This document shows, one piece after another, positions 2,979 through 24,333 of a stretch of DNA of 64,000 bases (position 1 is the first letter of the stretch; each line of letters begins with the position of its first letter). The notes under the pieces are model-generated. The model was not told the origin of the DNA and searched no databases. It was given only the letters and a program-made list of their open reading frames with translations. Source of the stretch: Candidatus Dormiibacterota bacterium. GTDB lineage: Bacteria > Chloroflexota > Dormibacteria > Aeolococcales > Aeolococcaceae. The stretch is taken from the NCBI GenBank assembly GCA_035995545.1, contig DASYKI010000001.1:902-64901 (forward strand), written 5' to 3'. Made by a program: the position numbers and the translations under genes.

Positions 2979-4607
2979 GAACTCGTGCACCGAGCGCACC
3001 GCCGCCGAACCCTCTCCCACCGCTGAGGCGACCCGCTTCATCGACCCGGAACGCACGTCGCCAACCGCGAACAGCCCCGGCATGCTGGTCTCGAAGGGCA
3101 GCGGTCGACGCCCCAGCACCTCCCAGCGCCGGCCGAGGTGCTCCTCGTCGAGCGACCGGTCGGTCAGGATGAACCCCTTGCTGTCGAGACTGACGCATCC
3201 CGACAGCCACCCCGACGACGGTTCGGCGCCGATGAAGGAGAACAGCGCGGCGCATCGCAGCGCCACCGCGTCGTCGCCACCGCTGCTGACGCGCACCGAC
3301 CTGAGGGTCTGGTCGCCGTCGAGCGCGGTGACGCGCGTAGCCCGGCGCACCGTGATGCGGCCGTCGGCCTCGATGCGCTCGACCAGGTAGCGCGACATGC
3401 TGCGGTCGAGGCTCGGCGCCCGGATCACCACCGTGACCGGGCTGCCTGACTCCGCGAGGAACAACGCCGCCTGTCCAGCGGAGTTGCCGCCGCCGACGAT
3501 CACCACCGGCTCCGCCGCACAGGCGCGCGCCTCCAATTCGGTCGCGGCGTAGTACACACCGTTGCCCTCGAAGTCCTCGAGACGGTCGACCTCGAGTCGC
3601 CGGTAGCGCGCGCCGCTGGCGACGATGACGGCGCGGCCGGCGATGTCGGACCCGTCGGAGAGGCGGATCACCAGGTGTCCGGCCTCCTCGCGAAGACTCG
3701 CGGCCGCGCAGGGAAGTGTCAGGTGGGCGCCGAACTTCTCCGCCTGCACCACCGCGGCGAAGGTGAGGTCGCCACCGGAGATGCCCATGGGAAATCCGAG
3801 GTAGTTCTCGATGCGCGAGCTGGCTCCGGCCTGGCCGCCGGCGGCGACCTTCTCGGCGAGCAGGGTGCTCAGTCCTTCGGAGGCGCCGTACACGGCGGCG
3901 GCCAGACCCGCAGGACCGGCGCCGAGGACAACGAGGTCGAAGCAGCGCTCGGGAAGGCTGGCCAGGGTGAGGCCGAGGAAGTCGGCGAGTACGCCGGGCG
4001 TCGGCCGGCGCAGCACCGTGCCCGACGAGATGACCACGGGCAGCTCGTCCGCCGCGACATCGATGTCGCGCAGCAGCTGCTCGACCGCCTCGCCGTCGCG
4101 ATCGGGATCGAGCCACTGGTGCGGGATGCGATTGCGCGTCAGGAACTCGCGCAGCCGGCGCGTCTCCGGCAGGTACCGTGAGCCGACGATGCGCGTCGCC
4201 GCGGCAGCGTCGGCGAGCAGCCCGGTGCGACGGGCGACGAAGGCGCCGAGGATGATGTCGCCGAGGTGCGGGTGGGTCGCCATCAGCTGCCGCAGCGCCG
4301 TCCGCGACAGCACGATCACCTCGCCGGGTTCGACGACGCGCGCCGACAGGTAGGCGCGGCGGCCGGTGAGCATGTTGAGCTCGCCGAGGAAGCGCCCGGC
4401 GCCATGCCGGGTGATGACCTGCTCCTTGTCGTTCGATCCCAGCACGATCTCCACCGCCCCGGCGACGACGACGTGGAAGTCGTAGTCGGTGTCGCCCTCG
4501 CGGAAGAGGTATTCGCCGGTGCTCGTCGCCCGTCGCGTCCCGACGGCGTCGAGCGTCGCCATGTCCGACTCGTCGAGGACGGGGAAGGAGACGGCGTCCT
4601 CAGCCAT
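2961..4607 (-). CDS. cyclic-nucleotide-binding-domain protein fused to a thioredoxin-reductase-like FAD/NAD(P) oxidoreductase
   Basis: The N-terminal cNMP-binding fold reads FREGDTDYDFHVVVAGAVEI...RHGAGRFLGELNMLTGRRAYLSARV. It is followed by the Rossmann motif DLVVLGAGPAGLAAAVYGA and a TrxR-like body. The start is MAEDAVSF (ATG at 4607); the upstream 164 codons of the ORF are judged non-coding. Confidence 0.85.
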   Translation of the reverse strand: MAEDAVSFPVLDESDMATLDAVGTRRATSTGEYLFREGDTDYDFHVVVAGAVEIVLGSNDKEQVITRHGAGRFLGELNMLTGRRAYLSARVVEPGEVIVLSRTALRQLMATHPHLGDIILGAFVARRTGLLADAAAATRIVGSRYLPETRRLREFLTRNRIPHQWLDPDRDGEAVEQLLRDIDVAADELPVVISSGTVLRRPTPGVLADFLGLTLASLPERCFDLVVLGAGPAGLAAAVYGASEGLSTLLAEKVAAGGQAGASSRIENYLGFPMGISGGDLTFAAVVQAEKFGAHLTLPCAAASLREEAGHLVIRLSDGSDIAGRAVIVASGARYRRLEVDRLEDFEGNGVYYAATELEARACAAEPVVIVGGGNSAGQAALFLAESGSPVTVVIRAPSLDRSMSRYLVERIEADGRITVRRATRVTALDGDQTLRSVRVSSGGDDAVALRCAALFSFIGAEPSSGWLSGCVSLDSKGFILTDRSLDEEHLGRRWEVLGRRPLPFETSMPGLFAVGDVRSGSMKRVASAVGEGSAAVRSVHEFLDFAH

Positions 4608-8758: not shown

Positions 8759-9392
8759 CCGCGGGGAGAGCTCGCCGCCGCAGGTAGAGGACGACGACGA
8801 CACTGGAGAGCGCGGCCCACGCGCACCACAGGGAGGTGAGGCCCGTGAAGGTCAGCCAGCCCAGGACGATCACGGCGGCGAGGTTGACAATCCCGAACGC
8901 CGCCAGCATTCGGCTGCTGGCAACCAGCAGGGCGCCACAGGTGGCCAAAACGTAGAACACACCGAGAAGGAGGGCGTCCGAACCGCCTGACACGTAGGCG
9001 ATGTGAGAGCCGTCGATCGACGCTCCCGCTGGGCTGCGGACGATCTCAACGAGGAGCAGTGCACTGGTCACGGCGCCCAGCGCCAGGAGTGCCGCCATCC
9101 ATCGCCGTCGCCCCGGCACCGTCTCGACCCCGAACAGCGCCAGTGGCACCAGAAACGGCAGCAGGAAGGCGAAGGCCAGAAAGACGTAGATGGCCGTGCG
9201 CATCGCCGTCGCGGAGACCTGACCATGGAGACCCCACCACACGACCGACTCGTCGAGCATGTGCGCACCCAGCAGCAGCGGCAACGACGCGAGCACCAAT
9301 TGCTGCCGTCGACTGACATGGCGCAGAGCGTCGACGCCGAAGGCACCGGCCACCAGGCCCGTGGCCAGGTCAGCCTCGGCAGAGAAGCACAT
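8751..9392 (-). CDS. hypothetical polytopic membrane protein
   Basis: A hydrophobic helical protein (MCFSAEADLATGLVAGAFGV...). The start at 9392 overlaps the end of the desaturase gene by about 23 nt. Confidence 0.5.
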   Translation of the reverse strand: MCFSAEADLATGLVAGAFGVDALRHVSRRQQLVLASLPLLLGAHMLDESVVWWGLHGQVSATAMRTAIYVFLAFAFLLPFLVPLALFGVETVPGRRRWMAALLALGAVTSALLLVEIVRSPAGASIDGSHIAYVSGGSDALLLGVFYVLATCGALLVASSRMLAAFGIVNLAAVIVLGWLTFTGLTSLWCAWAALSSVVVVLYLRRRALPAVS

Positions 9393-10398
9393 TGCCGTTG
9401 GTCGCCCGGCCGACGCTGCGCAAGTGGTGGAACACCTCGCGATATGCAACCCACGGCGACGTCTCGCGGTAGCAGATCCCCTGTTCCTCGCAGAAGCGGC
9501 GGACGATCGGGGCTGCCGTCCTGAGATTTCGGCGCGGCATCGTCGGGAACAGGTGATGCTCCACCTGGCAGCTCAGCGAACCGAAGAAGTAGTCGCTGGC
9601 GCGACCGGCGCGGATGTTGCGCGCGGTGACGACCTGGCGGTGCAGGAAGTCGATGTCGTCATCGGGCTCGAGGATGGGCATGCCAACGTGGTTGGGGAGG
9701 AAGGCTCCACCAAGGTAGAGGCCCAGCAACAATTGATGCACGGCGGCGAAGGCCAGTCCGCGCCCCACACCGAGAGTCATCGTCAGGGCGCCGAAGTAGA
9801 GCGTGTAATGCGCGGCGATGAGGCCGGCCTCCGCGCGCGCATTGCGCAGCGTGCGCTCGCGCAGGAACCCCGCGCTGTAGACATGGATCTGCAGCACACT
9901 CAAGGACAGCAGCGGGCCGATCGTAGCCGCCTGGCGGTGGATCATGAAGCGAGTGAAGCCGCGTGCCCTCCGCGCCTCGTCGTCGCACAAGGCGACGAGC
10001 CCGCCCTCGATGTCGGGATCGGTTCCGATGCGGTTCGGTTGCGCGTGGTGTGCGTTGTGCTTGTCCGCCCACCACCCGCGACTGCCACCGAGCACGAGAT
10101 CGAACAGCACCAGGCCGAGGATGTAGTTGGCCCGGCTGGTCTTGAGGATCTGGTTGTGCACCGCGTCGTGGGCGAGAAAGCCGAGCTGGCCGAAGAGCAG
10201 CGCGGCCGGAGCTGCCCAGGCGAGGGCCCACCAGCCTCCGCTGGTGAGAAGAATGCCGGCGAGAATCACACCCAGCAGCAGGACGATACCCGCGGTTGGG
10301 ACGATCTCACTGCTGGGCCTTCGGGTCAGAAGGCCGCGGCCGGCCACCAGCCGCTTGAGCTGGACGTAGGCATCGACCTGGTCATCGGGCACGACCAC
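9370..10398 (-). CDS. membrane fatty-acid desaturase
   Basis: Three histidine boxes, HDAVH, HNAHH and HVEHH, plus transmembrane segments. Confidence 0.9.
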   Translation of the reverse strand: MVVPDDQVDAYVQLKRLVAGRGLLTRRPSSEIVPTAGIVLLLGVILAGILLTSGGWWALAWAAPAALLFGQLGFLAHDAVHNQILKTSRANYILGLVLFDLVLGGSRGWWADKHNAHHAQPNRIGTDPDIEGGLVALCDDEARRARGFTRFMIHRQAATIGPLLSLSVLQIHVYSAGFLRERTLRNARAEAGLIAAHYTLYFGALTMTLGVGRGLAFAAVHQLLLGLYLGGAFLPNHVGMPILEPDDDIDFLHRQVVTARNIRAGRASDYFFGSLSCQVEHHLFPTMPRRNLRTAAPIVRRFCEEQGICYRETSPWVAYREVFHHLRSVGRATNGNVLLCRG

Positions 10399-10590
10399 CC
10401 AGTATTCCCTCCCTCGTGGCTCCGGTCTGTACTGCGGCGGACATCCATGGACTGATGCGTCGTCACGTGCTGGACAGGAATGTCAGCGAAGTCCGATCTC
10501 CGCTCGGCGGCGGATCGGCACTCAGTCCCGGGCTGCCGCTGCTTCGCGCGGGCGCTGCCAAGGGACTGCGTCGCCCGCTAGCCTTGGCGC

Positions 10591-11742
10591 GTGGAGGCGT
10601 CCGCAGCCAGCGTCCTCGAGATCGGCGTGGTCCTGGTGCTCGCCACCGCGGCCGGATGGCTGGCGCGTCGGGTTGGTCTGCCTGCGGTGCTCGGCTATCT
10701 CGCCGTCGGCCTGGTGGTGTCGCCGTTCACCCCGGGCTACTCGATCCACCGCGACCAGCTCCAGGTGCTCGCCGACCTCGGCGTGGTGCTGCTGCTCTTC
10801 GAAGTGGGCATCGAGATCAACCCGCTGCGGCTGCGCCACCAGCATGGGCCACTGCTCTGGGCGGTGCCGCTGCAGACCGTGGTCACCATGGCGGCGGCCA
10901 CCGGCGTCGGGCTTGGCATGCACCTCGGTCTGCGCGGCGCTCTGATCCTCGGACTCGCCGTGGCGCTCTCGTCGAGCGTGGTGGTGGTCAACATCACTCG
11001 CAGCCGGCGCCGCACCACCAACCCTTCCACCGAAGCGGCCCTGCTGGGATGGAGCGTTTTGCAGGACGTGGGCGGCGTCGCCATCGCGATGGGTCTGCTC
11101 GCCGCGATCGAGGATCACCCCCGACCCATCCCTCTGATCGTGGGCGGTGTGCTCGGCTACGTCGCGGTGGCGCTTGGGGCCGCACAGCTTCTGCCACGGG
11201 TGCTCCGCGTCTTGCGCGCCGAGGCCGACCTGTTCCTGATGCTGTCCGTCGCCAGCGGGCTCGCGCTCGCCGGCCTCGGCGCGGTGGTGTTCGGCGTGCC
11301 CTTGGCACTCGCCGCGTTCGTCGCCGGCCTCGGGCTCAGCGAAGGACCGGACGCCGCCGAGGCTCGCCGCCGCCTCCTTCCCTTCCGCGACCTCTTCGCC
11401 GTCATGTTCTTCGTCGCCATCGGCACTCTCGTCGATCCCCGCGCGGTCCCTGACGCGTTGGCCTGGACGGCGGTGGTCGTCGGCCTCGTCGTGGTCGCCA
11501 AGGTGGGCGTCATCTACGGTCTCGCAAGTGTCCTCGACCGCCCCAGCGTCCACCCCTGGCAGCTCGCCTCCGGGCTTGGCCAGATCGGCGAATTCAGCTT
11601 CGTGCTGGCGTCCGTCGGCGTTGCGCGCGGTGTCGTACCAAGCACCCTCTACACCGCGATGCTCCTCTCTGTCGTGGTGACCATCGCGGCATCGACGATC
11701 CTCGTACGTCTTCGCCCGCAGGCCGCTGCTGCTAACTGGTAA
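10591..11742 (+). CDS. cation:proton antiporter (CPA2 / Kef-type Na+/H+ exchanger)
   Basis: A polytopic protein with typical Na_H_Exchanger-family sequence (LGYLAVGLVVSPFTPGY, GLSEGPD). Confidence 0.85.
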   Translation: MEASAASVLEIGVVLVLATAAGWLARRVGLPAVLGYLAVGLVVSPFTPGYSIHRDQLQVLADLGVVLLLFEVGIEINPLRLRHQHGPLLWAVPLQTVVTMAAATGVGLGMHLGLRGALILGLAVALSSSVVVVNITRSRRRTTNPSTEAALLGWSVLQDVGGVAIAMGLLAAIEDHPRPIPLIVGGVLGYVAVALGAAQLLPRVLRVLRAEADLFLMLSVASGLALAGLGAVVFGVPLALAAFVAGLGLSEGPDAAEARRRLLPFRDLFAVMFFVAIGTLVDPRAVPDALAWTAVVVGLVVVAKVGVIYGLASVLDRPSVHPWQLASGLGQIGEFSFVLASVGVARGVVPSTLYTAMLLSVVVTIAASTILVRLRPQAAAANW

Positions 11743-11863
11743 GCGCCCTCCGCGCAGCGCGCTGCATGCTCATCACACGGAACCGAATGGCCCTAATCAT
11801 CCGCTCCCAGGACGATGGCATGATTCGCGCTGTGTGCCCGCCACGGATGCTGTCGAGGTCCTC

Positions 11864-12757
11864 ATGACACGGACGCAAGTGCCTCCGGTACTCGTCACCG
11901 GAGCGACGGGCCGCGTTGGGCGCGCCGTCGTCGACCTACTGATGGACGCGGGCGTGCCTGTTCGCGCCCTCACGCGTCGCTCCGATGCGACTGCGATGCT
12001 GCCAGCAAACGTCGACGTCGTCACCGGCGACCTCACCGTGCCCGAGTCGCTCGACGGGGCACTGCGAGATGTCACTACGGTCTTCCTTGTCTGGACCGCC
12101 CCGCCGGCGACTGCTCCGGCAGTTGTCGAGCGTCTGGCAACCTCCGCGCGGCGTGTCGTCTTCCTCTCATCACCGCATCAGACCCCGCACCCCTTCTTCC
12201 AGCAACCGAATCCAATGGCGGTGCTCCACGCCGACATCGAGCGGCTCATCACGGCCGCCGGGCTCGAGTCGACGATCATCCGGCCGGGGATGTTCGCGTC
12301 GAACGCGGTTGCCTGGTGGGCGACCGCGATTCGCGCCGGCGGTGTCGTCCGGTGGCCGTACGGCGCCGCCGAGACGGCTCCCGTCGATGACCGCGACGTG
12401 GCCGCGGTCGCGGCACGGACCCTGTATCAGGACGGACATGCAGGAGGCGACTACGTCCTCACCGGCCCCGAGTCACTGAGTCAGGCAGAGCAGGTGAGCA
12501 TCATCGCTGACGTCTGGGGGCGGCGGGTCACATTCGAGGAGCTGTCGCCGGAGGAGTTTCGACGCGAGACGGAGGGGAGCTGGCCGCCCGCGATCGTGGA
12601 CATGCTGCTCGCCGCATGGGGCGCAACGATTGGAAGGCCGGCGTACATCACCTCGACGGTGTTCGACATCCTCGGATCAGCGCCGCGATCCTTTCGCCAG
12701 TGGGTCGTCGATCACCCCACCGCGTCGACGGAAGGTGCGGCCAGTGACGAAGCCTGA
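11864..12757 (+). CDS. NmrA-like / atypical SDR NAD(P)H-binding protein
   Basis: VLVTGATGRVGRAVVDLL is a Rossmann motif, with an NmrA-like body. The start is taken as MTRTQVPP. Confidence 0.8.
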   Translation: MTRTQVPPVLVTGATGRVGRAVVDLLMDAGVPVRALTRRSDATAMLPANVDVVTGDLTVPESLDGALRDVTTVFLVWTAPPATAPAVVERLATSARRVVFLSSPHQTPHPFFQQPNPMAVLHADIERLITAAGLESTIIRPGMFASNAVAWWATAIRAGGVVRWPYGAAETAPVDDRDVAAVAARTLYQDGHAGGDYVLTGPESLSQAEQVSIIADVWGRRVTFEELSPEEFRRETEGSWPPAIVDMLLAAWGATIGRPAYITSTVFDILGSAPRSFRQWVVDHPTASTEGAASDEA

Positions 12758-12897
12758 GACCCGCTGAGGGTTCGTCGCCCGAGGACGAGCGCCGGAAGGT
12801 CATGGATGCCTACTACGAGAGCCGGCCCCCGTTCGACCTTCTCCTCCGCCGCCCACGTTCATTGGCCTGCCTGTGCCCCAGCTCGAATACCGAGGTT

Positions 12898-12931
12898 TGG
12901 CTGAGCTGAGGCGATGCTATTCGAACTTCAC
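12898..12931. repeat. possible degenerate direct repeat of the tRNA-Gln 3' end (island far-end attachment-site remnant)
   Basis: tggctgagctgaggcgatgctattcgaacttc resembles tggctggggagagaggattcgaacctc at the tRNA 3' end (24257..24283): a tggctg 6-mer and an attcgaac 8-mer are shared, with indels between them. It lies in a locally AT-richer intergenic patch. Confidence 0.25.
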
Positions 12932-13006
12932 GGAAATTCGGCTGAGGCTCGCCAAGCTCAACGCGGTCCTCAGAAGCGGAGACCGTGGCAGCCAGGACAC
13001 GCGAGC

Positions 13007-13396
13007 TTAGACGCGGTGGACACGTACCTGACGGTGCTCCTGCAGCAACTCAGACATATCCTTCGGGTCGGTCGTGAGGACGACGGCCGGCACCCGGGCA
13101 ATCGCTTCTGCAGCGATGAGGGCATCTATCGTCACGCCGCGTCGGGTGGACTTGCCAAGAAGGCGGCCGGCCTGCCGCGCGGTCTCTTCGGTGACGGGCG
13201 TCACCTCGTTGACCGCCTTGATGACTTGATTCACCGGTGCGTCCTGCCCTCCGCCGCGCCTTGTCTCAGCGATGACGACTGCCGGAATCACGACGAGGTC
13301 ACTCTGGCTCAGCGCTCGCTCAAGGTAGGCCCGGGCACTGGGATCGCGGCGCGCCAAGGCCACCACGGCGCCACTATCCAGGATCAATCGGGCCAA
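13007..13396 (-). CDS. vapC: PIN-domain toxin VapC
   Basis: ILDSGAVVAL...VIAETRRG...IDALIAAEA carries the PIN acidic residues. It overlaps the upstream antitoxin by 13 nt. Confidence 0.8.
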   Translation of the reverse strand: MARLILDSGAVVALARRDPSARAYLERALSQSDLVVIPAVVIAETRRGGGQDAPVNQVIKAVNEVTPVTEETARQAGRLLGKSTRRGVTIDALIAAEAIARVPAVVLTTDPKDMSELLQEHRQVRVHRV

Positions 13397-13605
13397 TCGG
13401 CAGCCTGGACGCGGCGCTGGATCGCAGGAGGAACAGGGCCGGCCTCAGCGCTCATGTCATCGAGCAGCCGCCGAAGCCTCACCGCCTGCAGTTGCTGCCG
13501 GACGGCGCTGTTCACGAAGGACGAGAGTCCTCGGGAGCCGGCGACCTGGCGGAGCTCTTCGGCCACCTCCGGCTCGAGGGTGACAGAGACCTTCACGTGG
13601 GACAT
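13384..13605 (-). CDS. vapB: ribbon-helix-helix (CopG/VapB-type) antitoxin
   Basis: MSHVKVSVTLEPEVAEELRQVAGSRGLSSFVNSAVRQQLQ has the RHH pattern. Confidence 0.7.
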   Translation of the reverse strand: MSHVKVSVTLEPEVAEELRQVAGSRGLSSFVNSAVRQQLQAVRLRRLLDDMSAEAGPVPPAIQRRVQAADWPD

Positions 13606-13742
13606 GCAAGAATCCTACCGGTGGTGGGATTGACTGTCAAGCAGCGAAGAACGCGGCGCCAGGAGGGGCGCGCAGAGGGAGGAGAGAGCAGCTACCATCC
13701 TGACCCCTGTAAGGGGCGACGCGAGTGGGTCCATTCCGTAGC

Positions 13743-13766
13743 GACCGACACTGTCGGTGGTCGGTC
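13743..13766. promoter_or_regulatory. composite palindrome gaccgacaCtgtcggtGgtcggtc (candidate VapB operator)
   Basis: A perfect 7-1-7 palindrome accgacaCtgtcggt plus a third half-site. It lies about 140 nt upstream of the vapB start. Confidence 0.3.
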
Positions 13767-13877
13767 ACCTCTATCGTCCGCCCGGCGAGGACCGGCGCAA
13801 CACAGCGCTTGGGTCCGCGGCGGTATGCCCATTTCTCCGCTGCGACCAACTCATTTGCCGTCAGAACGCATACGGAC

Positions 13878-16800
13878 TCAGGTGTCATGCACCTTGCCGA
13901 GGACTTCTACCAGCTCGGCGATGACCTGAACGTCGGCTGCAGATGAGTCCGTGAGGACGATCGGCGCGAATTCGGGGTTGGCCGGTCTCAACGTGATCCG
14001 CTCGTGCCGCCACGAGTCGCCCTTCGCTGCCTTGTCGCTGTCGTAGCGCTTGACGGTGTAGCGCTGGCCGGTCTCGGGGTCAGCGGTGTCGCGCAACTGC
14101 ACGAGGACGGTCTTGCCTTGGCGCGAACCTTCGACGGGCGCGCGGAACAGGCAATACGCGCCATCTGGGATGACGGGCTCCATGGACTGGCCGATGACCT
14201 GGGTGACGAACATGCCAGGACGGAGGCGGTGACGCAGCGGGACCTCGACCCATTCGTAGCCGTCGTCCTCGATGTGCTGCGGATCGCCGAAGGCACCAGC
14301 CGCAGCCTTGAGCGGGACGAGCGGCACGCAGCTCGCATAACGATCTTCCGGACGGCAATCGACAACTCGCAATCCCGGCGGCATGGGGTACTCGGTGGCC
14401 GGCGACTCCGTTCCCGGTGGGGCGTCTCTGAGCCGTTGGTATGCCTCAGACGCCATCCATCCGCTCACGACCTCGCGGAAGGATGCGTCGTTCATGTATC
14501 GGACGAACAGCTCCTCATTCTGGTCCATGCGTTCGACGAAGAGTCGCTGCAGTAGGTTCTTGAACACCAGCTCGAACTTGTCTTCGGGGTTGACGGCGGC
14601 AGCTTGGCGCAGTCCATCGTCGATGACGGCGGCCTCGACGATCTGGTCGAAGAAGAGCTGGTCCGCCTGATTGAAGTCCGTGCCGAAGCGGTCGTTGACC
14701 AGATCAATGAGCTGCGACAGAGGAACGGCCTCCACGCGCCCCACTCCAGACCCGACTTCCTTGGGTCCGTCCAGCGCAGCTGCTGTGCCGTCCTGAAGCG
14801 AGATCGAGCCCTCGCTGATCTTCTGCAGGCGATAGTACTCCAGCCTCACTTCGTCGTCGAACTGATACGCAAGGCCTCCTCGCCGCCGCGGCAGCTTCGT
14901 CGTCAGATGACGCAGGAACACATAGAGCCGTTCGAGGTCCGAGTCCTGATACGGGATAATCTGACTCAGAAAAGCGTACAGGTTGCGGAACGCTTGCACT
15001 TTGGCCCGCCACGGCTCGGCCTCCTCCCGTTCGCGCTGAAGCAGAGCAAATCGCGATACTGCTGGATCCAGCGCAGCATTCATCGCCTGATGGTCCTGCG
15101 CGCTCTGGCGCTGCCTCGGCTTGAAGTACACCGCGCAGAACTGTTCGACCTCTTCGTCAAGGTAGATGCCTGAGGCGTCCAACTCACCCTTGATCGCGTA
15201 CATACGCGCGGGGTCGACCCCCTCTCCCATCTCCGCGCCTTCGTAGTAGACTTTGAAGGCCTCACGGATCTCGTCTCGGTCGTTCACGAAGTCGAGCACG
15301 AACGTATCTTCCTTGAGCGGGTGCGTGCGGTTCAGCCGCGACAGCGTCTGCACTGCCTGGATACCCGCGAGGCGCTTGTTCACGTACATCGTGTGCAGTA
15401 ACGGCTGGTCGAAGCCGGTCTGATATTTCTCGGCAACCAGGAGGACCTGAAACTCCTGCGTCGCGTACTTCTCCGGAAGCTCCTTCTCGCGTATGCCGAG
15501 GTTCATCCTCTCTTCGGTGTACTCCACGTCCGGGAGTCTGTCGTCCAGAACCGTCCCCGAGAAGGCGACAAGCGTCTTGATCGCGTAGCCCTTCCTCTTG
15601 ATGTACAAGTCAAAGCTCTGCTTGAAGCGCACCGCCTCCAGCCGCGAGCCCGTCACCACCATGGCCTTGGCGCGACCGCCGATCTTGTGGCGCGTGACCG
15701 ATTGGAAGTGCTCGACCATCACCTCGGTCTTCTGCGCAATGTTGTGTGGATGCAGGCGCAGGAAGCGCGCGAGTCCGCGCGCCGCTTCTTTCCGCTCGAC
15801 GTTGGGGTCGTCCTCGCACGCCTTGAGCAGCCTGTAGTAGGTGACATATGTCGAATAGTTCTTCAGCACGTCGAGGATGAACCCTTCCTCGATCGCCTGG
15901 CGCATGGTGTAGCGATGGATCGGCTCGCCCGCACGCCCGAATACGGCGAAGGTCTTGTGCTTCGGCGTCGCGGTGAAGGCGAAGAAGCTCAGATTCGCCT
16001 GTCGTCCGCGCTTGGCCATGCTGCGGAACAGCGCTTGGAGATCTTCGCGCCCCTCTTCGGCGGCGCGCTGGCGCGCTTCTTCCTGCATGCCCTCGCCGCC
16101 GAGGACCTCCTTGAGATCGGTCGCGGTCTCCCCGCCCTGCGAGCTGTGCGCTTCGTCGATGATCACCGCACAGCGTCTCGTCGGCAGCCTGCCAGTCCCC
16201 TGTTCGCCGCGTTCCTCGGCCAGCTTCAGCAACTGGCGCGACACGAAGGGGAACTTCTGGAGTGTCGTGATGATGATGGGAACGGCGCTCTCCAGCGCTT
16301 CTGCGAGCTGCCGGGATCGTTCGTCGATCTGCTGCACCACGCCACGCTTGTGCTCGAATTGGTAGATCGTGTCCTGGAGCTGCTGGTCGAGCACAACGCG
16401 GTCGGTCACCACGATCACGCTGTCGAAGACGCGCTGGTTGCCGGCATCATGCACCGAGGCCAAGCGGTGCGCCAGCCAGCCTATGGTGTTGCTCTTGCCG
16501 CTGCCCGCCGAGTGCTCGACGAGATAGTTGTGCCCGATGCCCTCGGCGCGCGCCGCGCCTACCAGCCGGCGCACGGCGTCAAGCTGGTGGTAGCGCGGGA
16601 AGATCATCGATTCGACCTTCACCTTGCGGCCCTGGTCGTCACGTTTCTCGTCGACTTGCAGGTGCAGGAAGCGCGCGAGGATGTCGAGCAGGCTGTCACG
16701 CTGCAGGGCCTCTTCCCAGAGGTACGCTGTCCGGTAGGCGCGCCCGGCGGGATCGGGCGGGTTACCGGCGCCGCCTCCGCATCCCTTGTCGAAGGGCAGG

Positions 16801-17432
16801 AAGTGCGTTGCGTTCCCGGCCAGCCGAGTGGTCATACGCACCGCCTCGGTGTCCGCGGCAAAGTGCACCAGGGTCCGCCGCTTGAACTCGAAGATCGGTT
16901 CGCGTGGATCACGGTCATGCCGGTACTGCCACAATGCGTCATCCACGGTCTGCCCACTGAGGGGATTCTTCAGCTCCACCGTGGCGATGGGGACGCCGTT
17001 CAGACTCAGCGTCACATCGATGGACTTCTCGGAGCGCGGCGAGAAGTGGAGCTGGCGGGTGAGTCCCAGCCGGTTGGCGGCGTAGCGTGCTTCGAGTTCT
17101 GGATTCAGCTCGTGAGCGGCTTTGAAGTACGCCACACGAAGCGGCCGGCCGTAGCACTTGAAGCCATGGCGTAACGTGGCTAGCGATCCGTGCACGTCCA
17201 TCCACTTGCACAGGTCGCCGATGACCTGCTCGCCTGTCTGGGCGCCGTGGAGCAACTCCAGCTTCGCCCACTGCTCCGGCTGGGTCTCGCGGATGAAGTC
17301 GAGGACGGCCTCCGGAAAGATCGCGCGCTCACGGTCGAAGCCGTCGCGGTTCAGCGTGACGTAGCCGTGCGCGAGCAGAGAGGTCTCGATGACGGTTTCG
17401 AAAGCGCTTTCCCAATGCCGGCTATCGCTCAC
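13878..17432 (-). CDS. hsdR: Type I restriction endonuclease R subunit (HsdR) with C-terminal LexA-like S24 peptidase domain
   Basis: An N-terminal PD-(D/E)xK nuclease ([21 protein letters not shown]) is followed by helicase motifs (GSGKSNT, DEAHSS, TATPKH). The C-terminal roughly 160 aa, [16 protein letters not shown]...[22 protein letters not shown]...GKTVLVQL...RYTVKRY...[15 protein letters not shown], is an S24/LexA-CTD fold. The start is taken as the GTG at 17432, giving a GTGA overlap with the ptuB stop; an alternative ATG lies at 17465. Confidence 0.85.
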
Positions 17433-18079
17433 GGGGCCATCCTCGCCAATCGCCTTTCCAACCACCAGACCGCAACCTGGCAGAACGGTTCAAGGCTGCC
17501 AACCCCATCGCTGCGCCGAGTACGCTCGCGCTCGAAGGTGCTCCGCGGGACCGCGTCACCGATCCTGTCCTTCTCGCGACGCCACCAAGCAAGAACAGCG
17601 TCCATGACACCCTTCCGATTGTTCTTGAGGATCGGAAGGTTGAGATTCAGAACGTCGCAAAGCTCGGCGTCGAACGCCGCATCGTCGGAGCGGATGCTCC
17701 CGTCCGCCTCATAGCGCAGTCGGGTTTCGATGTGGTGGGCTGGATCCGCCGGGTTCCAGAGGAGATCGGCATCCGCCTTGCGCGTGTCGCAGTGCTGGAG
17801 GCGCGACGGCTTTCCGTCGCCGCCCAGGCACGCACCGAGAAGATTGCGATATTCAAGCTGCTCAGCAGGGTATCGACCCTGACAGCGCCAATGCTCGATC
17901 TTCATCGTCGCCGGCCCATCGCTGATCCGCCCCGTGCAGTAGCAGCAGAGTCCCCGCTGCTCGGTCACCAGCGCGTGGCGCAGCGCGTCCTTGTCGGGGT
18001 AGTTGGCGTAGTCGCAGTGAGGCCTCTGCCGATGCGCTGTGAGGGTCGCGGGCGCGGCGCCCTTGGTGATTGCTCTCAT
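17429..18079 (-). CDS. ptuB: Septu PtuB-like HNH endonuclease (TIGR02646-like)
   Basis: The protein starts MRAITKG. The HNH motif reads [40 protein letters not shown]. There is an ATGA overlap with the upstream ATPase. The N-terminal extension of ORF 17429..18634 was rejected. Confidence 0.7.
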
Positions 18080-19329
18080 TCCTTCCCCTCCACGAAATCG
18101 AGGAGGGTACGAACCCGAGTGACCTCGGGATCGTCGTCTCCGAGCCGCTCGACGAGCTGTGTCAGAAGCGCGTGGCCGCGGGTGAACTCCTGTTGGCCGA
18201 TGCTCTTCGCAAGCTGCAACAGTAGATCCTGCACGTCTGTGGCGCGCGGGTCCGTGTCCATCACCTCTTCGAGCACCCGGCTCGAATCGACGCCGTAGGA
18301 ATGGGTCGGCGAGTATACCTCGCCGTTCGCAATGATCTGGATTCGATCGTGCTCGACCTGGCCGATGACCTGCGGCGAATGCGTCGTGGCGATGAACTGG
18401 CACCGCGGAAAGGCCGCCCGCAGGTTGCCGACGATCTGCCGCTGCCAGCTGGGGTGCAGGTGCAGGTCGATTTCGTCGATGAGCACCACCGCGCCGGCCT
18501 CGGCCGCTGGGTCCGCAAGAGCGGGATTGGCCTGGGCGAGCCGCCGGGTCAGGTCCAGCACCAGCGCCAGGGTCCCGCGCTCTCCGTCGGAGAGCTGCCG
18601 GACCGGAATCCCCGTGCCACCCCGGCTGATCCATAGTTGCCGGCCATCCTCGCCGCCCAGCCGTAAGCTGCTGTAGCCCGGCAGAAAGCGTGCAACCGCA
18701 TCCTCGAAGGCAGTCAACACGCGCAGGCCCTGCGGACGTTCCTTGCCGAGCACATGTTGCACGCGCATCCAGGCAGCGAATTCACCGAGGCGCAGCTCCC
18801 GATCGGCGAAGGCGTCGCCGAAGGCCGCCGCGACCTCTCCCGCCGCAACTCCCTTGGCCGGCGCCCGCTCCGACGGCATGGCACGGTTGGTCGAAAACAG
18901 CATGGCCAGCGGGCGGCCGCCAAGTTCCGTCCCGGATACGGGCGACGGCGGGTCGCCGAGGAACTCCGCCCTCTGCGGCGTGCTGTGGACCTGCTCGCGG
19001 GGCAGTCCCGCTTTGCTCTGCTGAGGCGAGCTGGTTTCAAGCGGCTTGTGCATGAGATAGGTGTGGTCGCCCTCTCCGATCCGGAGATCACATTCAAGTG
19101 TCAGCGCCTCGGCGCCAACGCGGATGTCGTCGCGAGTGAATGTCTCGAGCCGGCCGTGGAGCTTGTTCGTTTGGTTCGTCACTGCCGAGAGGCACACCCC
19201 GAGCGCGTCAAGCACGCTCGTCTTGCCAACTCCATTGATACCGACGATGAGGTTGAAACCCGGCTGGAAGCGGAACTCTGCGGTATCGATTGCGCGCAGG
19301 TTGGCGAGCCTGAGACGCGTGACCATCAT
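18076..19329 (-). CDS. ptuA: Septu PtuA-like ABC/SMC-type AAA15 ATPase
   Basis: Walker A GINGVGKTS, Walker B/D-loop VVLIDEIDLHLHP, H-loop IATTHSP and the signature LSDGERGTLALVLDL. There is an ATGA overlap with hsdS. Confidence 0.7.
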   Translation of the reverse strand: MMVTRLRLANLRAIDTAEFRFQPGFNLIVGINGVGKTSVLDALGVCLSAVTNQTNKLHGRLETFTRDDIRVGAEALTLECDLRIGEGDHTYLMHKPLETSSPQQSKAGLPREQVHSTPQRAEFLGDPPSPVSGTELGGRPLAMLFSTNRAMPSERAPAKGVAAGEVAAAFGDAFADRELRLGEFAAWMRVQHVLGKERPQGLRVLTAFEDAVARFLPGYSSLRLGGEDGRQLWISRGGTGIPVRQLSDGERGTLALVLDLTRRLAQANPALADPAAEAGAVVLIDEIDLHLHPSWQRQIVGNLRAAFPRCQFIATTHSPQVIGQVEHDRIQIIANGEVYSPTHSYGVDSSRVLEEVMDTDPRATDVQDLLLQLAKSIGQQEFTRGHALLTQLVERLGDDDPEVTRVRTLLDFVEGKE

Positions 19330-20612
19330 GCCGCACTCTCCACGTCGATCCCGCCGGTCACGGCGGCGGCAATGAGGGCGGCACGGCGTTCCTTAAGGAG
19401 AGCAATGGTGCGTTCGGTTGATGCGCTGAGGCGATCCAGCTTCGCCGCCGCTGAACCAACATGTTCGATGATTCGGGACTGATCCTCCATCGGCGGCAAC
19501 GGCACCTGAATCGCACGGAAGCCCTCCCAGTACAGGCGAAGTCGGTCCCAAACGATCCCGTGCGAGTGCCTCGCGCACTCTGCACTAAATGCTTGTGTGC
19601 GGAACAACAGACCCGCGTATGCCGAGTTCAACGAGCCAGTCGGCTCTGCAACGACATAGTCGGGGCTCACCAAGCCGTCTGCCGGCGTTACACCCACCGC
19701 ACCCTGCCACATGCGCATCTTGTTGAAAGCAATGTCTCCCCGCTTCGCCACCTTGTAGGTGTTGAAATCGGCCGCCGTGCTCTCGATCCGGTCATCTGAG
19801 AATTCTCGGAGTGCGACGCCGGCGTTGATGGATACCTCAAGCAGCGGGAGATCGGCCTCGCCGCGTTGGTCCCGCTCGCGAAAGAGCCACGCGATTCTTC
19901 GGACCGCCCAATGCGCCGGAATCGCCCCGAGCCACGGGATGCCGGAGTCTCGGAGGGGGGCGTTGGGATCGAGGCCCCGGATGACGGCGCGGGTGATGAG
20001 CGCCCGGCGCTTCTCGGCCAGCAGAACGAGCACCCGCTCCTTCGCCGCCACCAGCGCGTCCAGCCGCGCCGTCTCGAGGTCGAGGTAGTCGGCGATGGCG
20101 CGCTGCATGTGAAACGGCGGCACCGGCAAAGTCGCCGCGCCAATGTCGGCCTTCGGTATTCCGAAGCGTGTGACACCGTTTGCTGCAAGCTCCAACTGGA
20201 CCCGCACAGGCTTCGCCTGAAGGCATCGGAATAGGAACGCCCCGTACACTCGGTCCGTGCGCGGCCGCAGCAACGCAAGGTGATAGCCGCAGACCAAGTC
20301 GTCGGCTGTCTCCCTCACGAGTGCAGGGACGCCAATATCATCCCAGGCTTCCGAATCCTTCGTGATGAGCACATCGCCGAGTGCAAGTCGGAACTTCTCT
20401 ATCTCAGCCTTTGTCGCCGTCGCCTGCATGAACTCGAGCCCAAGCATGATGAACTCGTGGTTGTAGACGTCAGTGTAGTTGCAGAGTCGGACAGGGACTT
20501 CATCATCGGCAGGGATCTTGTCGACGTTACTCACCACGTAGTCAGCAGTTGCTCGGAGCGGTTTCGCAGACCACCCCTCCGGAAGAGAATTGACCCACGC
20601 AAGGTGCGTCAC
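19326..20612 (-). CDS. hsdS: Type I R-M specificity subunit HsdS (two target-recognition domains)
   Basis: Methylase_S architecture, with conserved central and C-terminal repeats (LPLLKERRAALI..., LAEKRRALITRAV). There is a GTGA overlap with hsdM. Confidence 0.85.
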   Translation of the reverse strand: MTHLAWVNSLPEGWSAKPLRATADYVVSNVDKIPADDEVPVRLCNYTDVYNHEFIMLGLEFMQATATKAEIEKFRLALGDVLITKDSEAWDDIGVPALVRETADDLVCGYHLALLRPRTDRVYGAFLFRCLQAKPVRVQLELAANGVTRFGIPKADIGAATLPVPPFHMQRAIADYLDLETARLDALVAAKERVLVLLAEKRRALITRAVIRGLDPNAPLRDSGIPWLGAIPAHWAVRRIAWLFRERDQRGEADLPLLEVSINAGVALREFSDDRIESTAADFNTYKVAKRGDIAFNKMRMWQGAVGVTPADGLVSPDYVVAEPTGSLNSAYAGLLFRTQAFSAECARHSHGIVWDRLRLYWEGFRAIQVPLPPMEDQSRIIEHVGSAAAKLDRLSASTERTIALLKERRAALIAAAVTGGIDVESAA

Positions 20613-22594
20613 TCCGTCACCTCCCGCAGCAGCCGCATGATCTCGTCCTCCGCCTTCTTCAAGTCCGCGTCGATCTCCTCCAGCGGCCGTGGAGGCGTGT
20701 ACTTGTAGAAGTGGCGGTTGAAGTTGATCTCGTAGCCCACCTTGTCCTTGCTCCGGTCTATCCAGGCGTCGGGAACGTGGGGGCGCACCTCGCGCTCGAA
20801 GTAGGCGTCGATGTCCTCTTCGAGCGGCACCTTCTCGACGTCGCGCAGGTCGGCGTCGGGCTCGTAACCGCGGTCACGCCCTGCCTTGAGTACTGGCTCG
20901 GCTTCGGGATCTCTCTGCGTGAAGACGTCGCGGAACCGCTTCTCTTCGGTAGCCTTCCATCTCGACTTGCGCTCGTGCAGCAGGCTCGTGATGCCTGCCC
21001 AGGCCGCATTCCAGTCGCGCAGGTGTTCGCGGCCCAACGCCCTGTCGATGGCCTGCACGTCATCGAGGAGCTCCGGGAAGGCGTCAAGGAAGCGTGCCTT
21101 GTCGTCGGTCGTCATCCGATAGCTGAGGCGCAGCGGGCGCTCGACGGTGACACGCGTATAGCCAAAGTCGGCGTTGTCGAAGATCTTCGAACGCCCGTCG
21201 TCCTCAAAACGCCCGTAGAGGCGCACGATCTCCCCTATCTGGCTGCTTGCGATATGGCGTCGCTTGTCGCCGAGGCTGCGCTTGCTCTCCTCACTGCCGC
21301 CGGCGGTCCAGAACTCGCGGGCGTCGAGGAGCTGGATCCTGCCCTCGCGCTGCTTCTCCTTGCGATTGGTGAGGATCCAGACGTAGGTGCCGATGCCGGT
21401 GTTGTAGAACATCTGCTCGGGCAGGGCGACGATCGCTTCGAGCCAGTCGTTCTCGATGATCCATCTGCGGATCTCGGTCTCGCCCGAACCGGCGCCGCCG
21501 GTGAACAGCGGCGAGCCCGAGAAGACGATGGCCAGGCGCGAGCCATGCTTGCGCTCAGCCGGCTGCACCGGCTCAAACTTGTCGATCATGTGCTGCAGGA
21601 AGAGGAGTGAGCCGTCGTTGACGCGCGGTAGCCCGGCGCCGAAGCGGCCTTCGAAGCCCCGCTTGTTGTGCTCGCGGTGGATATCCCTCTGTTGTCTCTT
21701 CCAGTCCACCCCGAAGGGCGGATTGGTCAGGAAGTAGTCGTAGGTCTCGCCTTGGAACTGATCGTCCGTGAAGCTGTCGCCGAAGCGAATGTTGTCGTTG
21801 CCACCGTTGTGATCCACCTGCTTCATCAGCATGTCCGAGGCCGCGGTGGCGAAAGCGCGCTTGTTGTAATCCTGCCCGTAGACGTAGAGCTTCGCCTCAC
21901 CGTGATGGTCCCGCAGGTAGTTCTGGGCCTCGGCCAGCATGCCACCGGTGCCGCAGGCGGGGTCGAGGAGCTTGCGGACAGTGCCCGGGGTGGCGAGCAA
22001 CTTGTCGTCCTGGATGAAGAGGATGCTGACCATCAGCCGGATGACCTCGCGCGGCGTGAAGTGATCTCCCGCGGTCTCGTTGGCCAGCTCGTTGAAACGG
22101 CGGATGAGGTTCTCGAAGATGAGGCCCATCTGCTCGTTGGGCACTCGGTCGGGGTGCAGATCGACGTCGCAGAACTTGGAGACGACGAGATAGAGGATGT
22201 TGGACTCGCGCATCTTCTCGATCTCGTTCTCGAACTCGAAGAAGTCGAAGATGCGCCGCACGTTGGCCGAGAAGGACTTGGTGTAGGTGACGAGGTGCTG
22301 GGCGATGTCATCGGGATCGCCCTTGAGCTTCTCGAAGTCGAGCTCTGAGTGGTTGTGGAAGCGCTGGCCCGCGGCCCTGTTCAGACGGGCGTCCAGGGCG
22401 TCACCCCGGAACTTGTGCTTCGAGCGCTCGTGCTCGGCCAAGACCTTGGCCTTGGTGGGGGCGAGCACGCAGTCGAAACGCCGCAGCACTGTCATGGGCA
22501 GCATCACGCGCTCGTACTGCGGCGGGCGGTAGGGCCCACGCAGTAGGTCAGCGATCTGCCAGATGAGGTTGGTGAAGTAGTTGTGGTCAGGCAT
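20609..22594 (-). CDS. hsdM: Type I R-M N6-adenine DNA methyltransferase HsdM
   Basis: The HsdM_N signature MPDHNYFTNLIWQIADLLRGPYRPPQYERVMLPMTVLRRFDCVL, motif I LDPACGTGGML and motif IV NPPFGVDW. The start is the ATG at 22594; 166 upstream codons of ORF 20609..23092 were rejected. Confidence 0.9.
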   Translation of the reverse strand: MPDHNYFTNLIWQIADLLRGPYRPPQYERVMLPMTVLRRFDCVLAPTKAKVLAEHERSKHKFRGDALDARLNRAAGQRFHNHSELDFEKLKGDPDDIAQHLVTYTKSFSANVRRIFDFFEFENEIEKMRESNILYLVVSKFCDVDLHPDRVPNEQMGLIFENLIRRFNELANETAGDHFTPREVIRLMVSILFIQDDKLLATPGTVRKLLDPACGTGGMLAEAQNYLRDHHGEAKLYVYGQDYNKRAFATAASDMLMKQVDHNGGNDNIRFGDSFTDDQFQGETYDYFLTNPPFGVDWKRQQRDIHREHNKRGFEGRFGAGLPRVNDGSLLFLQHMIDKFEPVQPAERKHGSRLAIVFSGSPLFTGGAGSGETEIRRWIIENDWLEAIVALPEQMFYNTGIGTYVWILTNRKEKQREGRIQLLDAREFWTAGGSEESKRSLGDKRRHIASSQIGEIVRLYGRFEDDGRSKIFDNADFGYTRVTVERPLRLSYRMTTDDKARFLDAFPELLDDVQAIDRALGREHLRDWNAAWAGITSLLHERKSRWKATEEKRFRDVFTQRDPEAEPVLKAGRDRGYEPDADLRDVEKVPLEEDIDAYFEREVRPHVPDAWIDRSKDKVGYEINFNRHFYKYTPPRPLEEIDADLKKAEDEIMRLLREVTE

Positions 22595-22786
22595 CGCGCC
22601 AGTGGGCCTCAGCGAAGGAGTCAGTTGGCGGACCATTCTGCTGTACCCAGGACAGGACGGGAACCGCGGGTTGCCGCGGGCCATGCTGATGAGGCGCGCC
22701 TGGAAGCTCGGGGCTGAGCCCCCACGCTCGACTTGCCTCGCCCTATGCAGTGGCTGGACGACGTAGGTTAGTCCAACTAGACTACC

Positions 22787-23032
22787 TTGATCATGACCCA
22801 GGTCAACATCCACGATGCCAAGACGCACCTGTCCCGCCTGCTCGAACGGGTTGAGGCCGGGGAGGAAGTCGTCATCAGCCGCGCCGGGCGACCGATCGCG
22901 CGGCTGGTGGCCTATCACGCGCTCGTGGAGCCGCGTCGCCCCGGGGCCTGGAAGGGTCGTGTCCGCGTCGCACCGGACTTCGACGACCTTCCGACCGAGA
23001 TCGAGCGTGCTTTTCGCGGCGACGACGCATGA
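22787..23032 (+). CDS. Phd/YefM-family antitoxin
   Basis: MIMTQVNIHDAKTHLSRLLERVEAGEEVVISRAGRPIARLV is typical of Phd/YefM. There is an AT-rich promoter directly upstream. Confidence 0.8.
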   Translation: MIMTQVNIHDAKTHLSRLLERVEAGEEVVISRAGRPIARLVAYHALVEPRRPGAWKGRVRVAPDFDDLPTEIERAFRGDDA

Positions 23033-23406
23033 CGCTGCTGCTCGACACGCATGCGCTCCTATGGTGGTTGACCGACGATCAAACGCTGACAAGCTCGGCG
23101 CGGAAGGCCATCGAGGATCCCAGGTCGACCGTCTACGTCAGCGCCGTCACCGCGTGGGAGATCGGCATCAAACGGGCTATCGGCAAACTCGTTGCGCCCG
23201 ACGACCTCGAAGACCAACTGAGAGATGGCGGCCTGACGGAAGTGCCAGTGACGGTCGCAGATGCCATCGCCGCTGCGACGCTTCCACGGCATCACGACGT
23301 TCCTTTCGACAGGATGCTGGTCGCGCAGGCGCAGCGTCGCGGATTGACAGTGGTGACCCGCGATCGCTGGATCGGTCAATACGACGTGCCAGTCCTCGCC
23401 GCATAG
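23029..23406 (+). CDS. vapC: PIN-domain toxin (VapC family)
   Basis: LLDTHALLWWLTDD...YVSAVTAWEIGIKRAIGKL...TRD is a PIN fold. There is a 4-nt overlap with phd. Confidence 0.85.
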   Translation: MTLLLDTHALLWWLTDDQTLTSSARKAIEDPRSTVYVSAVTAWEIGIKRAIGKLVAPDDLEDQLRDGGLTEVPVTVADAIAAATLPRHHDVPFDRMLVAQAQRRGLTVVTRDRWIGQYDVPVLAA

Positions 23407-24192
23407 TTCCACTCTCCTTGCCGTAGGAGTTCGGCTACGGGGTTCGGCGGGCAGAGAGTGTGTGCGGTTCTACCACCTCGTGGCCGCCCGCGGACTCCAA
23501 GACTGCGGACATCGGTGACCCCTCGGGCTCCCAACCAGGACGGAGTGGAGCAAGGTGACCGAACGGGAGCTGCCCGGGGGCGCGGCCCGGCGTCTAGCGA
23601 GGGGCTGAGGAGGTACGAGGAGCTCGGGCTTGAGGGGCTACGAAATCGTTGCTGTAGCCCTCTCAACGGCCCGAAGGCGCTCAGCAAAGGGTGGTGGGGA
23701 AGATCATGTGCCTGCGTCAGACCGCTTTCGGGCCGCACGGTGAGCAGGAAGCCACCGACGATGTCCATCTGCCACAGCTCCATCGGGCCGCCCGCTCCCA
23801 TCGCTTCCACGTCTCGCGTCGACGCTGCCGCGTGACCGGTTGAACCACCCGCGCTCGAACCAGAGACCGGTACACCGCCGAATCCGACGGCGCCGGGTCG
23901 ACCCCCTTATTGGTCAGCTCGAAGGCCAGGCGCCGCGCCCAGTACGGCTTCCACCGGCGGAGCTCGAGCACCATCGCCTCGAGCTCCGGCGACCTCCGAT
24001 GCGGGCAGGCCACCGGCCGGTAAGACCGGTCGCCCAGCGCCTCCAGACCGCCCGCCTCATACCGCGCCAGCCACACGTGCACCGTCTGCCGGCTCACCCC
24101 CATTCGGCCGCCACCTCGGTGACCGTCTTCCCGTCACCCGTGACGGCGAGGACTGCCTTGTATCGCTGTTCGGCCACGCTCAGTTCCCTCAT
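23376..24192 (-). mobile_element. IS481-family transposase remnant (N-terminal HTH part, frameshifted and truncated)
   Basis: The protein starts MRELSVAEQRYKAVLAVTGDGKTVTEVAAEWGVSRQTVHVWLARYEAGGLEALGDRSYRP. After a frame change it reads ...PNELWQMDIVGG. Neither an intact DDE catalytic core nor inverted repeats could be identified. Its 3' part is overlapped by the phd-vapC module. Confidence 0.55.
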
Positions 24193-24256: not shown

Positions 24257-24333
24257 TGGCTGGGGAGAGAGGATTCGAACCTCTGATTGGCTGATCCAGA
24301 GTCAGCTGCCTTACCACTTGGCCACTCCCCAGC
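24257..24333 (-). tRNA. tRNA-Gln (anticodon CTG), CCA encoded
   Basis: The reverse complement folds as a cloverleaf. The acceptor stem is GCUGGGG/CCCCAGC. The anticodon stem-loop is GCUGA-CUCUGGA-UCAGC with anticodon CUG. The T-arm is AGAGG-UUCGAAU-CCUCU. Confidence 0.85.

Follow-up and report, generated by a model that had tools for sequence, protein, structure and literature searches.

The 64,000-nucleotide stretch analyzed here (the window: contig DASYKI010000001.1 of a Candidatus Dormiibacterota bacterium, positions 902 to 64,901 of the forward strand) encodes a Type I restriction subunit, HsdR, which, as judged from profile comparisons and a structural model, ends in a LexA/UmuD-type S24 peptidase domain with its Ser/Lys dyad retained. 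Both parts are of known kinds and it is their combination that is new. The first-pass annotation of the window had proposed this fusion and regarded it as undescribed; indeed, the full-text literature searched yielded no account of a restriction or defense enzyme bearing an S24 or LexA-like domain; it included a 2025 restriction-modification review, a 2026 survey of BREX domains, and a 2025 survey of YprA helicases. The unit of interest is the S24 module itself, beyond the single HsdR, as close relatives of it are found on a series of unrelated defense enzymes.

An S24 domain at the end of HsdR

The first ~1000 residues of the protein contain the Pfam domains HSDR_N, SWI2_SNF2, ResIII, and a T1R_D3-like region, and match the PADLOC REase_I model (6.6e-34); this part is a complete Type I restriction subunit. 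Its score against TIGR00348 is 187 bits, under the 284-bit subfamily cut-off, which indicates a divergent HsdR family. A Pro/Gly-rich linker, whose columns have no consensus in two tail alignments (A1, A2), then leads to the tail. The Pfam model Peptidase_S24 (PF00717; gathering cut-off, 23.3 bits) matches the whole protein (E=2e-7, 31.1 bits) and, more strongly, the 174-residue tail alone (E=4.3e-9, 36.5 bits, profile positions 5–116 of 116); the model is also matched by 65 of 69 diverged relatives.

Alignment by hhalign of a 32-sequence tail profile with E. coli LexA (reference sequence identical to PDB 7b5g_A) gives a probability of 88.8% (E=2.5e-6), the two being 33% identical across 105 aligned columns. 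GQS1083MEP of the tail is thereby paired with GMS119MK of LexA, YTVK1128RY with VTVK156RL, and QHIE with QHIE, and the tail site PLVPLKAAA1045/G1046 with GLPLVGRVAA/G. The register is one residue off at the AAAG/VAAG repeat, and the exact bond was assigned by the Gly, which is located 37 residues ahead of Ser1083 as compared with 34 in LexA. Furthermore, tail residues V, F, and L align with V79, F111, and V146, which form the LexA pocket that receives F203 of RecA.

An alignment-based AlphaFold model of the tail is all-beta (predicted local distance difference test, pLDDT, 69.5; predicted template modeling score, pTM, 0.69), and the 30 best Foldseek matches to it are all LexA, lambda cI, or UmuD; the model thus has the beta fold of the LexA C-terminal domain (CTD) that characterizes Peptidase S24. 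It replaces a model computed from the single sequence, which was unusable (pLDDT 36.5). Searches of the PDB by sequence returned only noise with the single tail sequence (phmmer) and weak, sub-threshold matches with the tail profile (E 0.08–1), nearly all of them to LexA, showing that the tail is a diverged S24 member and no close copy of LexA. In addition, Pfam detects no helix-turn-helix (HTH) domain in the HsdR-S24 protein, which is predicted to carry an S24 domain and yet not to be a LexA-type transcriptional repressor.

These results bear out what the first-pass annotation had read from the letters. It had called the S24 fold, with the Ser of GQSMEP and a downstream Lys as the dyad, and had suggested the PF00717 search and the structural superposition on LexA, both of which came out positive. 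All of the tail peptides that it quoted are present in the translation, and its length of 1184 residues agrees with a GTG start at 17432. This start lies right behind the ptuB stop codon and is the one indicated by alignment with homologue N-termini (MSDARHSEAAFETVIE...). The annotation had overlooked that one of its quoted peptides is the LexA-type cleavage site, that the operon contains a Septu pair, and that the module recurs on many unrelated enzymes.

Two inserts in the module (residues ~1105–1145; window 14004–14060 and 14100–14130) are themselves conserved, one with the pattern DpETGqRY and an invariant Asp, the other with gDsWRH and near-invariant Trp and His. Both inserts, as well as the lead-in strand that opens the module, might serve to contact some protein or ligand besides RecA.

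Conservation and distribution of the fusion

The 120 best full-length homologues are all 1170–1210 residues long and 80–86% identical, with the same architecture and the Ser motif kept, and nearly all of them have a precomputed PF00717 match. The few that have a named source are from Armatimonadota, Acidobacteriota, Trueperaceae, Desulfobulbaceae, and Gammaproteobacteria. Among 240 close homologues, the Ser motif is present in 240/240, the pattern YT[VIL]KRY in ~93%, and the site pattern PL..AAAG in most. Conservation of individual residues was assessed on 108 cluster representatives that are 45–72% identical to the query. Ser is retained in 108/108 (100%) and Lys in 106/108 (98%); at the site, P2 is always Ala (100%), P1 is Ala in 97% (otherwise Cys or Ser), P1' is Gly in 97%, and only one representative has a P3 residue outside the set A, V, I, and L.

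A homologue search, also suggested by the first-pass annotation, retrieved hundreds of proteins with the tail, and a scan at one genome per species located 80 module loci, nearly always in metagenome-assembled genomes, that span over 15 phyla. The S24-tagged enzymes belong mostly to uncultured bacteria of soil, sediment, and wastewater. No relative of the module was found in the phage genomes searched, and the plasmid collection yielded a sole, distant relative, on a chromid of the cultured Halomonas sp. PA16-9 (NZ_CP040452.1). At that locus (L081, 6977–9447), the ORF of an SLFN-g3/DUF2075 helicase is followed by an overlapping ORF of 159 residues in another frame, which encodes an S24 domain 42% identical to the module, with the site IAAG and the motifs GESM and TVKLY; the region is unannotated in the record. 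The pair is probably a frameshifted fusion.

Public annotation may have kept the fusion out of sight. The NCBI record HEV7676950.1, a 168-residue 'S24 family peptidase' of a Candidatus Dormibacteraeota MAG, is identical to the tail from the internal Met1017 (window 13878–14384, minus strand). In the window, hsdR runs into the tail with no intervening stop codon, so this annotation appears to have divided or shortened the gene. Elsewhere, full-length proteins are labeled 'type I restriction endonuclease subunit R' or 'DEAD/DEAH box helicase family protein' and fragments 'LexA' or 'S24 family peptidase'. We considered whether the tail usually exists as a gene of its own and rejected this, since tblastn identified most S24 matches of 150–450 residues as contig-end fragments or frameshifted or pseudogenized copies of the fusion. 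Two metagenome proteins (P0253 and P0287) follow class A HsdR (the family of the window protein) up to residue ~395, with 80–84% identity, and then pass straight into the S24 module; a deletion or a chimeric contig may account for them.

The same module on other defense enzymes

Modules 60–78% identical to that of the window are present on unrelated enzymes, which we group into five main classes. Class A is the HsdR family of the window, with a C-terminal module. Class B consists of N6_Mtase/Eco57I plus Type_ISP_C proteins of 1310–1530 residues, encoded after a PLD-SNF2 helicase gene (example, L005), and class C of giant DEAD, Helicase_C, and MZB helicases of the DruE/YprA kind, 2000–2100 residues long (example, L010). 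In class D, which was met at five independent loci (L029 at 9005–12706, L046, L050, L056, and L072), the module is internal and includes the AAAG site: these HindI-like HsdR proteins, with a T1RH-like_C region, carry it between the HSDR_N nuclease (28–235) and the motor (495 onward; example, L029). Class E is a HIT-PLD-helicase of 1237 residues with a C-terminal module (example, L079). Further partners are MmeI-like Type IIL enzymes (methyltransferase with target recognition domain, MTase-TRD), McrC-like proteins, LlaJI-, AlwI-, and HNH-type nucleases, and SLFN-g3/DUF2075 helicases. No HTH was detected among the 25 commonest partner families (69 diverged representatives). In the HindI-like family the module is also found at the C-terminus (L076 and L063).

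The mean identity of the module is 68% between classes A and B and 70% between A and D, close to the 72% found within class A, where the HsdR cores are ~80% identical. Since modules differ about as much within class A as between architectures, repeated transfer of the domain among defense genes is indicated. This comparison uses only pairwise identities of the well-extracted classes A, B, and D. A neighbor-joining tree of the modules was set aside because several of its long branches were put down to motif extraction having taken the wrong G.SM in giant proteins; the classes with long branches also show very low minimum identities, which pointed to this error. Apparent STAND-NTPase partners were likewise not counted, being probably weak P-loop cross-matches from SLFN-g3/DUF2075 helicases.

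The loci of other tagged enzymes are dense defense islands (L005 at 10480–18040 and 19061–20125; L010 at 2900–4348). Among their genes are those for a 1262-residue protein that weakly matches reverse transcriptase, an SF1 helicase also of 1262 residues, an AAA_15/DUF3696 ATPase, an RNA ligase, and regulators with HTH plus M78 (ImmA/IrrE-like) domains.

Proposed mechanism

We tentatively propose that the tail of HsdR is a LexA-type autoprotease whose self-cleavage, probably stimulated by activated RecA (RecA*), would expose a ClpXP degron and so alleviate restriction. In this mechanism, the S24 module would stay idle until the cleavage-site strand PLVPLKAAA/G is pushed into the Ser1083/Lys1128 active site. 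The likeliest driver would be docking on a filament of RecA and single-stranded DNA (ssDNA), arising from DNA damage or recombinational repair, as for LexA, lambda cI, and UmuD. The Ala1045-Gly1046 bond would then be cut, in cis or between two copies, setting free an S24 core of ~139 residues and leaving an enzyme of ~1045 residues that ends in ...LKAAA-COOH and has lost any S24-mediated pairing. Such an end would be an ssrA-like C-terminal degron of the kind that sends the N-terminal fragment of LexA to ClpXP. The enzyme would be degraded or otherwise disabled, and restriction would be alleviated for a time while unmodified chromosomal sites persist. We speculate that the loss of S24-mediated pairing between two nuclease-bearing subunits adds to the effect.

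The same action on other restriction and defense enzymes would make the module a portable 'switch off on SOS' tag. We put forward this broader proposal with somewhat more reserve: a mobile module, present on at least ten unrelated families of restriction or defense enzymes, would wire them post-translationally to RecA* and the SOS response by way of cut, degron, and destruction. The families counted are two of HsdR, ISP/IIG- and MmeI-like MTase-TRD, DruE/YprA-like, PLD-helicases, McrC, LlaJI, AlwI, HNH, and DUF2075. For all of them we infer the cleavage itself, RecA* as its trigger, and inactivation via the degron.

Two features favor an off-switch and make the idea of built-in alleviation by RecA*-responsive self-cleavage, already raised by the first-pass annotation, more plausible, in addition to the conserved Ala-Gly site. 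In class D, a cut in the module between nuclease and motor would part the two and leave a nuclease ending in AAA-COOH. In every architecture, moreover, the fragment N-terminal to the predicted cut would end in [A/V/I/L]-A-A-COOH, at the place of the LexA degron, with the ...AAA end of the window protein being LexA-like. Lambda cI (QA/G) and UmuD (QC/G) are cleaved without Ala-Ala, so that the invariant P2 Ala of the module exceeds what cleavage needs. Passages of PMC5742171 and PMC7101444 that cite Neher 2003 describe, for LexA-like proteins, buried ClpXP C-degrons immediately ahead of the Ala-Gly bond. Proteolytic alleviation of restriction has precedents: after DNA damage ClpXP acts on HsdR in Types IA and IB, while the means is unknown in Type IC (PMC3874165, PMC4231737), and in P. 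aeruginosa HsdR is degraded by Lon-like proteases (bioRxiv 10.1101/2024.10.21.619520).

Several points weigh against this mechanism. Cleavage, trigger, and outcome are all steps that we infer, and the tail model is of moderate quality (pLDDT 69.5, one of five models), with weak similarity to solved S24 proteins. A 1045-residue enzyme would have to fit the groove of the RecA filament, where the N-terminal domain of LexA is already sterically limiting. LexA lacks the conserved R.ERY.tCVPL lead-in of the module and its 8- and 9-residue inserts, and these features could mean another trigger. Fusion to a methyl-dependent McrC-like protein is poorly explained by shielding of unmodified host sites. 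DNA-damage signals also switch defenses on, as with CapH/CapP and CBASS, and M78 peptidase regulators adjoin some of the loci. Finally, some LexA-like proteins, such as IrvR, self-cleave independently of RecA (PMC7101444).

A switch of the opposite sign is one alternative, which we consider unlikely. Here the S24 module would restrain the enzyme, by blocking HsdM2S assembly or by holding an inactive dimer, and RecA filaments on phage or plasmid ssDNA would remove it and license full restriction solely during replication of foreign DNA, making the module an infection sensor. The substrates of the partner helicases of the DruE type are intermediates rich in ssDNA, to which RecA binds as well (PMC13192584). 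The conserved dyad and site would suit an on-switch as they do an off-switch, and damage-responsive M78/ImmA-like peptidase regulators with an HTH lie beside two loci. There are also precedents in that UmuD is activated by S24 cleavage and CapH/CapP induce CBASS upon DNA damage, and the tail follows the C-terminal region of HsdR, the EcoR124I counterpart of which mediates assembly. However, a cut that would take the nuclease of the HindI-like HsdR away from its motor is hard to square with activation, and cleavage would leave a product with an AA-COOH degron of the LexA type. Constitutive activity is the rule for Type I enzymes, and the analysis gave no evidence of autoinhibition. We regard as similarly doubtful a module that works without RecA, either as a cleavable dimerization handle pairing two nuclease-bearing subunits whose cooperation a double-strand break requires, or as a slow, constitutive self-cleavage timer that caps the half-life of the enzyme, with another trigger (pH, crowding, stalled translocation, or a ligand bound to the inserts). 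Pure dimerization would not need an invariant Ser, Lys, and Ala-Gly, the residues aligned with the LexA pocket for RecA F203 remain hydrophobic, and QHIE after the site is common to the module and LexA. On the other side, the CTDs of LexA and cI are dimerization domains, and Type I, ISP, MmeI-like, AlwI, and McrBC enzymes require two nuclease domains or a collision. Self-cleavage of IrvR needs dimerization and not RecA (PMC7101444). The conserved inserts and lead-in strand without counterpart in LexA also fit a RecA-independent role, as does the unusual conservation of the module across unrelated hosts (60–78%).

Two further readings would remove the switch altogether. A non-catalytic relic, in which the S24 fold only binds or docks, for example on RecA filaments or DNA, and never cleaves, is improbable, because relics normally lose such residues as the Ser, Lys, and Ala-Gly that are kept at 100%, 98%, and 97% in the 108 representatives, across more than ten architectures. 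That the fusion is an artefact has hardly any probability in our estimation; in this reading, hsdR and an independent S24 or repressor gene would have been joined through loss of a stop codon, through a frameshift, or by chimeric assembly. The separate 168-residue NCBI record and the many short S24 ORFs in databases might suggest an artefact, but the short ORFs mostly derive from contig ends or frameshifted long genes, the frame in the window is open throughout, the 120 best homologues come from independent samples with the same length and architecture, and the module is under purifying selection.

How a chromosome is protected from its own restriction and defense nucleases during repair is understood for few models, namely EcoKI with ClpXP and the Lon-like case of Pseudomonas. 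If the off-switch mechanism is true, the LexA-type switch built into these enzymes would add a novel form of signal-responsive, post-translational immune regulation that ties SOS directly to restriction. If the switch turned defense on, infection would be sensed in a novel manner, by means of RecA filaments. The module could also serve as a portable, self-removing degron tag triggered by SOS or pH.

Relation to known systems

The closest relative in kind is the LexA CTD (MEROPS S24, PF00717), which shares with the module the fold, the Ser/Lys dyad, the PLV..AA/G region, and QHIE downstream. The N-terminal fragment that leaves LexA (residues 1–84) ends in ...AA-COOH, and the same is predicted for HsdR-S24. 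In contrast to the N-terminal HTH of LexA, the partner here is a nuclease-translocase of ~1020 residues, and the module differs by its two inserts (8 and 9 residues), its extra conserved lead-in strand, and its limited identity (33% over 105 columns). UmuD, lambda cI, HdiR, and IrvR likewise have the S24 fold and a cut at an Ala/Cys-Gly bond, although no enzyme is attached to any of these proteins, and the functional product of UmuD is its own S24 core, activated by cleavage. ClpXP degrons are exposed upon cleavage of IrvR and HdiR (PMC5742171, PMC7101444).

Proteolytic removal of HsdR upon stress or in the presence of unmodified chromosomal sites, the outcome proposed here, is shared with EcoKI and EcoAI (ClpXP, Types IA and IB) and with the P. 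aeruginosa enzyme (Lon-like proteases). In those systems, however, the protease acts in trans, on translocating or heat-stressed HsdR that has no built-in protease or cleavage site. Unlike in ClpXP-mediated alleviation, the signal receiver of HsdR-S24 would be in HsdR itself, and its effect would be global, not limited to translocating complexes.

EcoR124I HsdR (Type IC, PDB 2w00) is the nearest HsdR of solved structure and the best sequence match in the PDB (E ~1e-10), yet a very distant one, with significant alignment only of residues 650–707. Its domains follow the same order as those of the window protein, with a PD-(D/E)xK nuclease, two RecA-like motor domains, and a helical C-terminal region, but it lacks the S24 tail, and alleviation of its restriction does not depend on ClpXP. 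The window operon also resembles Type I loci that bear cargo (PrrC, Rlo genes, or the Septu pair PtuAB), as it has cargo between hsdS and hsdR. Such cargo is not linked to the S24 tail, and most of the tail-bearing sister operons have no PtuAB.

Gene organization and genomic context

The minus-strand frame 13878–17465 is uninterrupted by a stop codon. The gene is the last of an operon in the order hsdM-hsdS-ptuA-ptuB-hsdR, with hsdM and hsdS upstream on the same strand (Table 1). The Septu pair (17429–19329, minus strand) is placed between hsdS and hsdR, with stop and start codons that overlap or abut, and its products score under the NCBIfam equivalog cut-offs for PtuAB of the retron-Ec78 type. 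The operon is a Type I system with an embedded Septu (PtuAB) pair.

Table 1 Features of the hsdR-S24 gene and its operon (window positions; catalytic and cleavage residues are predictions)
Feature	Coordinates	Strand	Description
hsdR-S24	13878–17432	−	1184 residues; GTG start; stop codon 13878–13880
HSDR_N nuclease domain	16815–17081	−	Residues ~118–206; PF04313, E=3.2e-11
D...ELK nuclease motif (VELK)	16968–16979	−	Within HSDR_N
SWI2/SNF2-type motor domain	15864–16589	−	Residues ~282–523; PF18766, E=9e-26; PF04851
Walker A, GSGKS	16491–16505	−	In motor
DEAH	16146–16157	−	In motor
Pro/Gly-rich variable linker	14373–14435	−	Residues ~1000–1020; from HsdR C-terminal helical region to S24 module
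S24 module	13881–14372	−	Residues ~1021–1184; lead-in strand, cleavage-site region, catalytic core
Cleavage-site region	14295–14324	−	Residues 1037–1046
Predicted scissile bond Ala1045/Gly1046	14298–14300, 14295–14297 (codons)	−	
Predicted nucleophile Ser1083 (GQSMEP)	14184–14186 (codon)	−	Aligned to LexA Ser119
Predicted general base Lys1128 (YTVKRY)	14049–14051 (codon)	−	Aligned to LexA Lys156
ptuB	17429–18079	−	Septu HNH nuclease, 216 residues; PADLOC PtuB 2.2e-68; NCBIfam PtuB, TIGR02646
ptuA	18076–19329	−	Septu ABC-type ATPase, 417 residues; PADLOC PtuA 1.8e-110; AAA_21, AAA_15, SMC_N
hsdS	19326–20612	−	Specificity subunit, 428 residues; PADLOC Specificity_I 8.6e-84; PF01420
hsdM	20609–22594	−	Methyltransferase, 661 residues from MPDHNYF; PADLOC MTase_I 7.2e-262

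The same five-gene layout is present in a second genome (L082). Most of 27 complete sister loci have detectable hsdM and hsdS upstream, and it is the slot between hsdS and hsdR that varies: PtuA plus PtuB occupy it in 6/27, a PtuA-like match alone in 4 more, and in the rest it holds other cargo or is empty. No intrinsic terminator was detected downstream of hsdR, and a search for att-type direct repeats of the tRNA-Gln gene near the operon, made to delimit an island, found none.

The start of hsdM was set at 22594 because the PADLOC MTase_I match begins at residue 169 of the mechanically called ORF and homologues have 661 residues. That ORF, of 827 residues from 23092, is over-extended by 166 codons (22595–23092) and in this part overlaps genes of the opposite strand for a Phd/YefM antitoxin (22787–23032, plus strand) and a PIN/VapC toxin (23029–23406, plus strand). 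On the upstream side, the operon is bordered by an IS481-type transposase HTH fragment (23717–24103, minus strand) and a tRNA-Gln(CTG) gene (24257–24331, minus strand). The G+C content is 62–65% over 14–24 kb as against 69–73% around it, and the setting suggests a small defense islet beside a tRNA gene.

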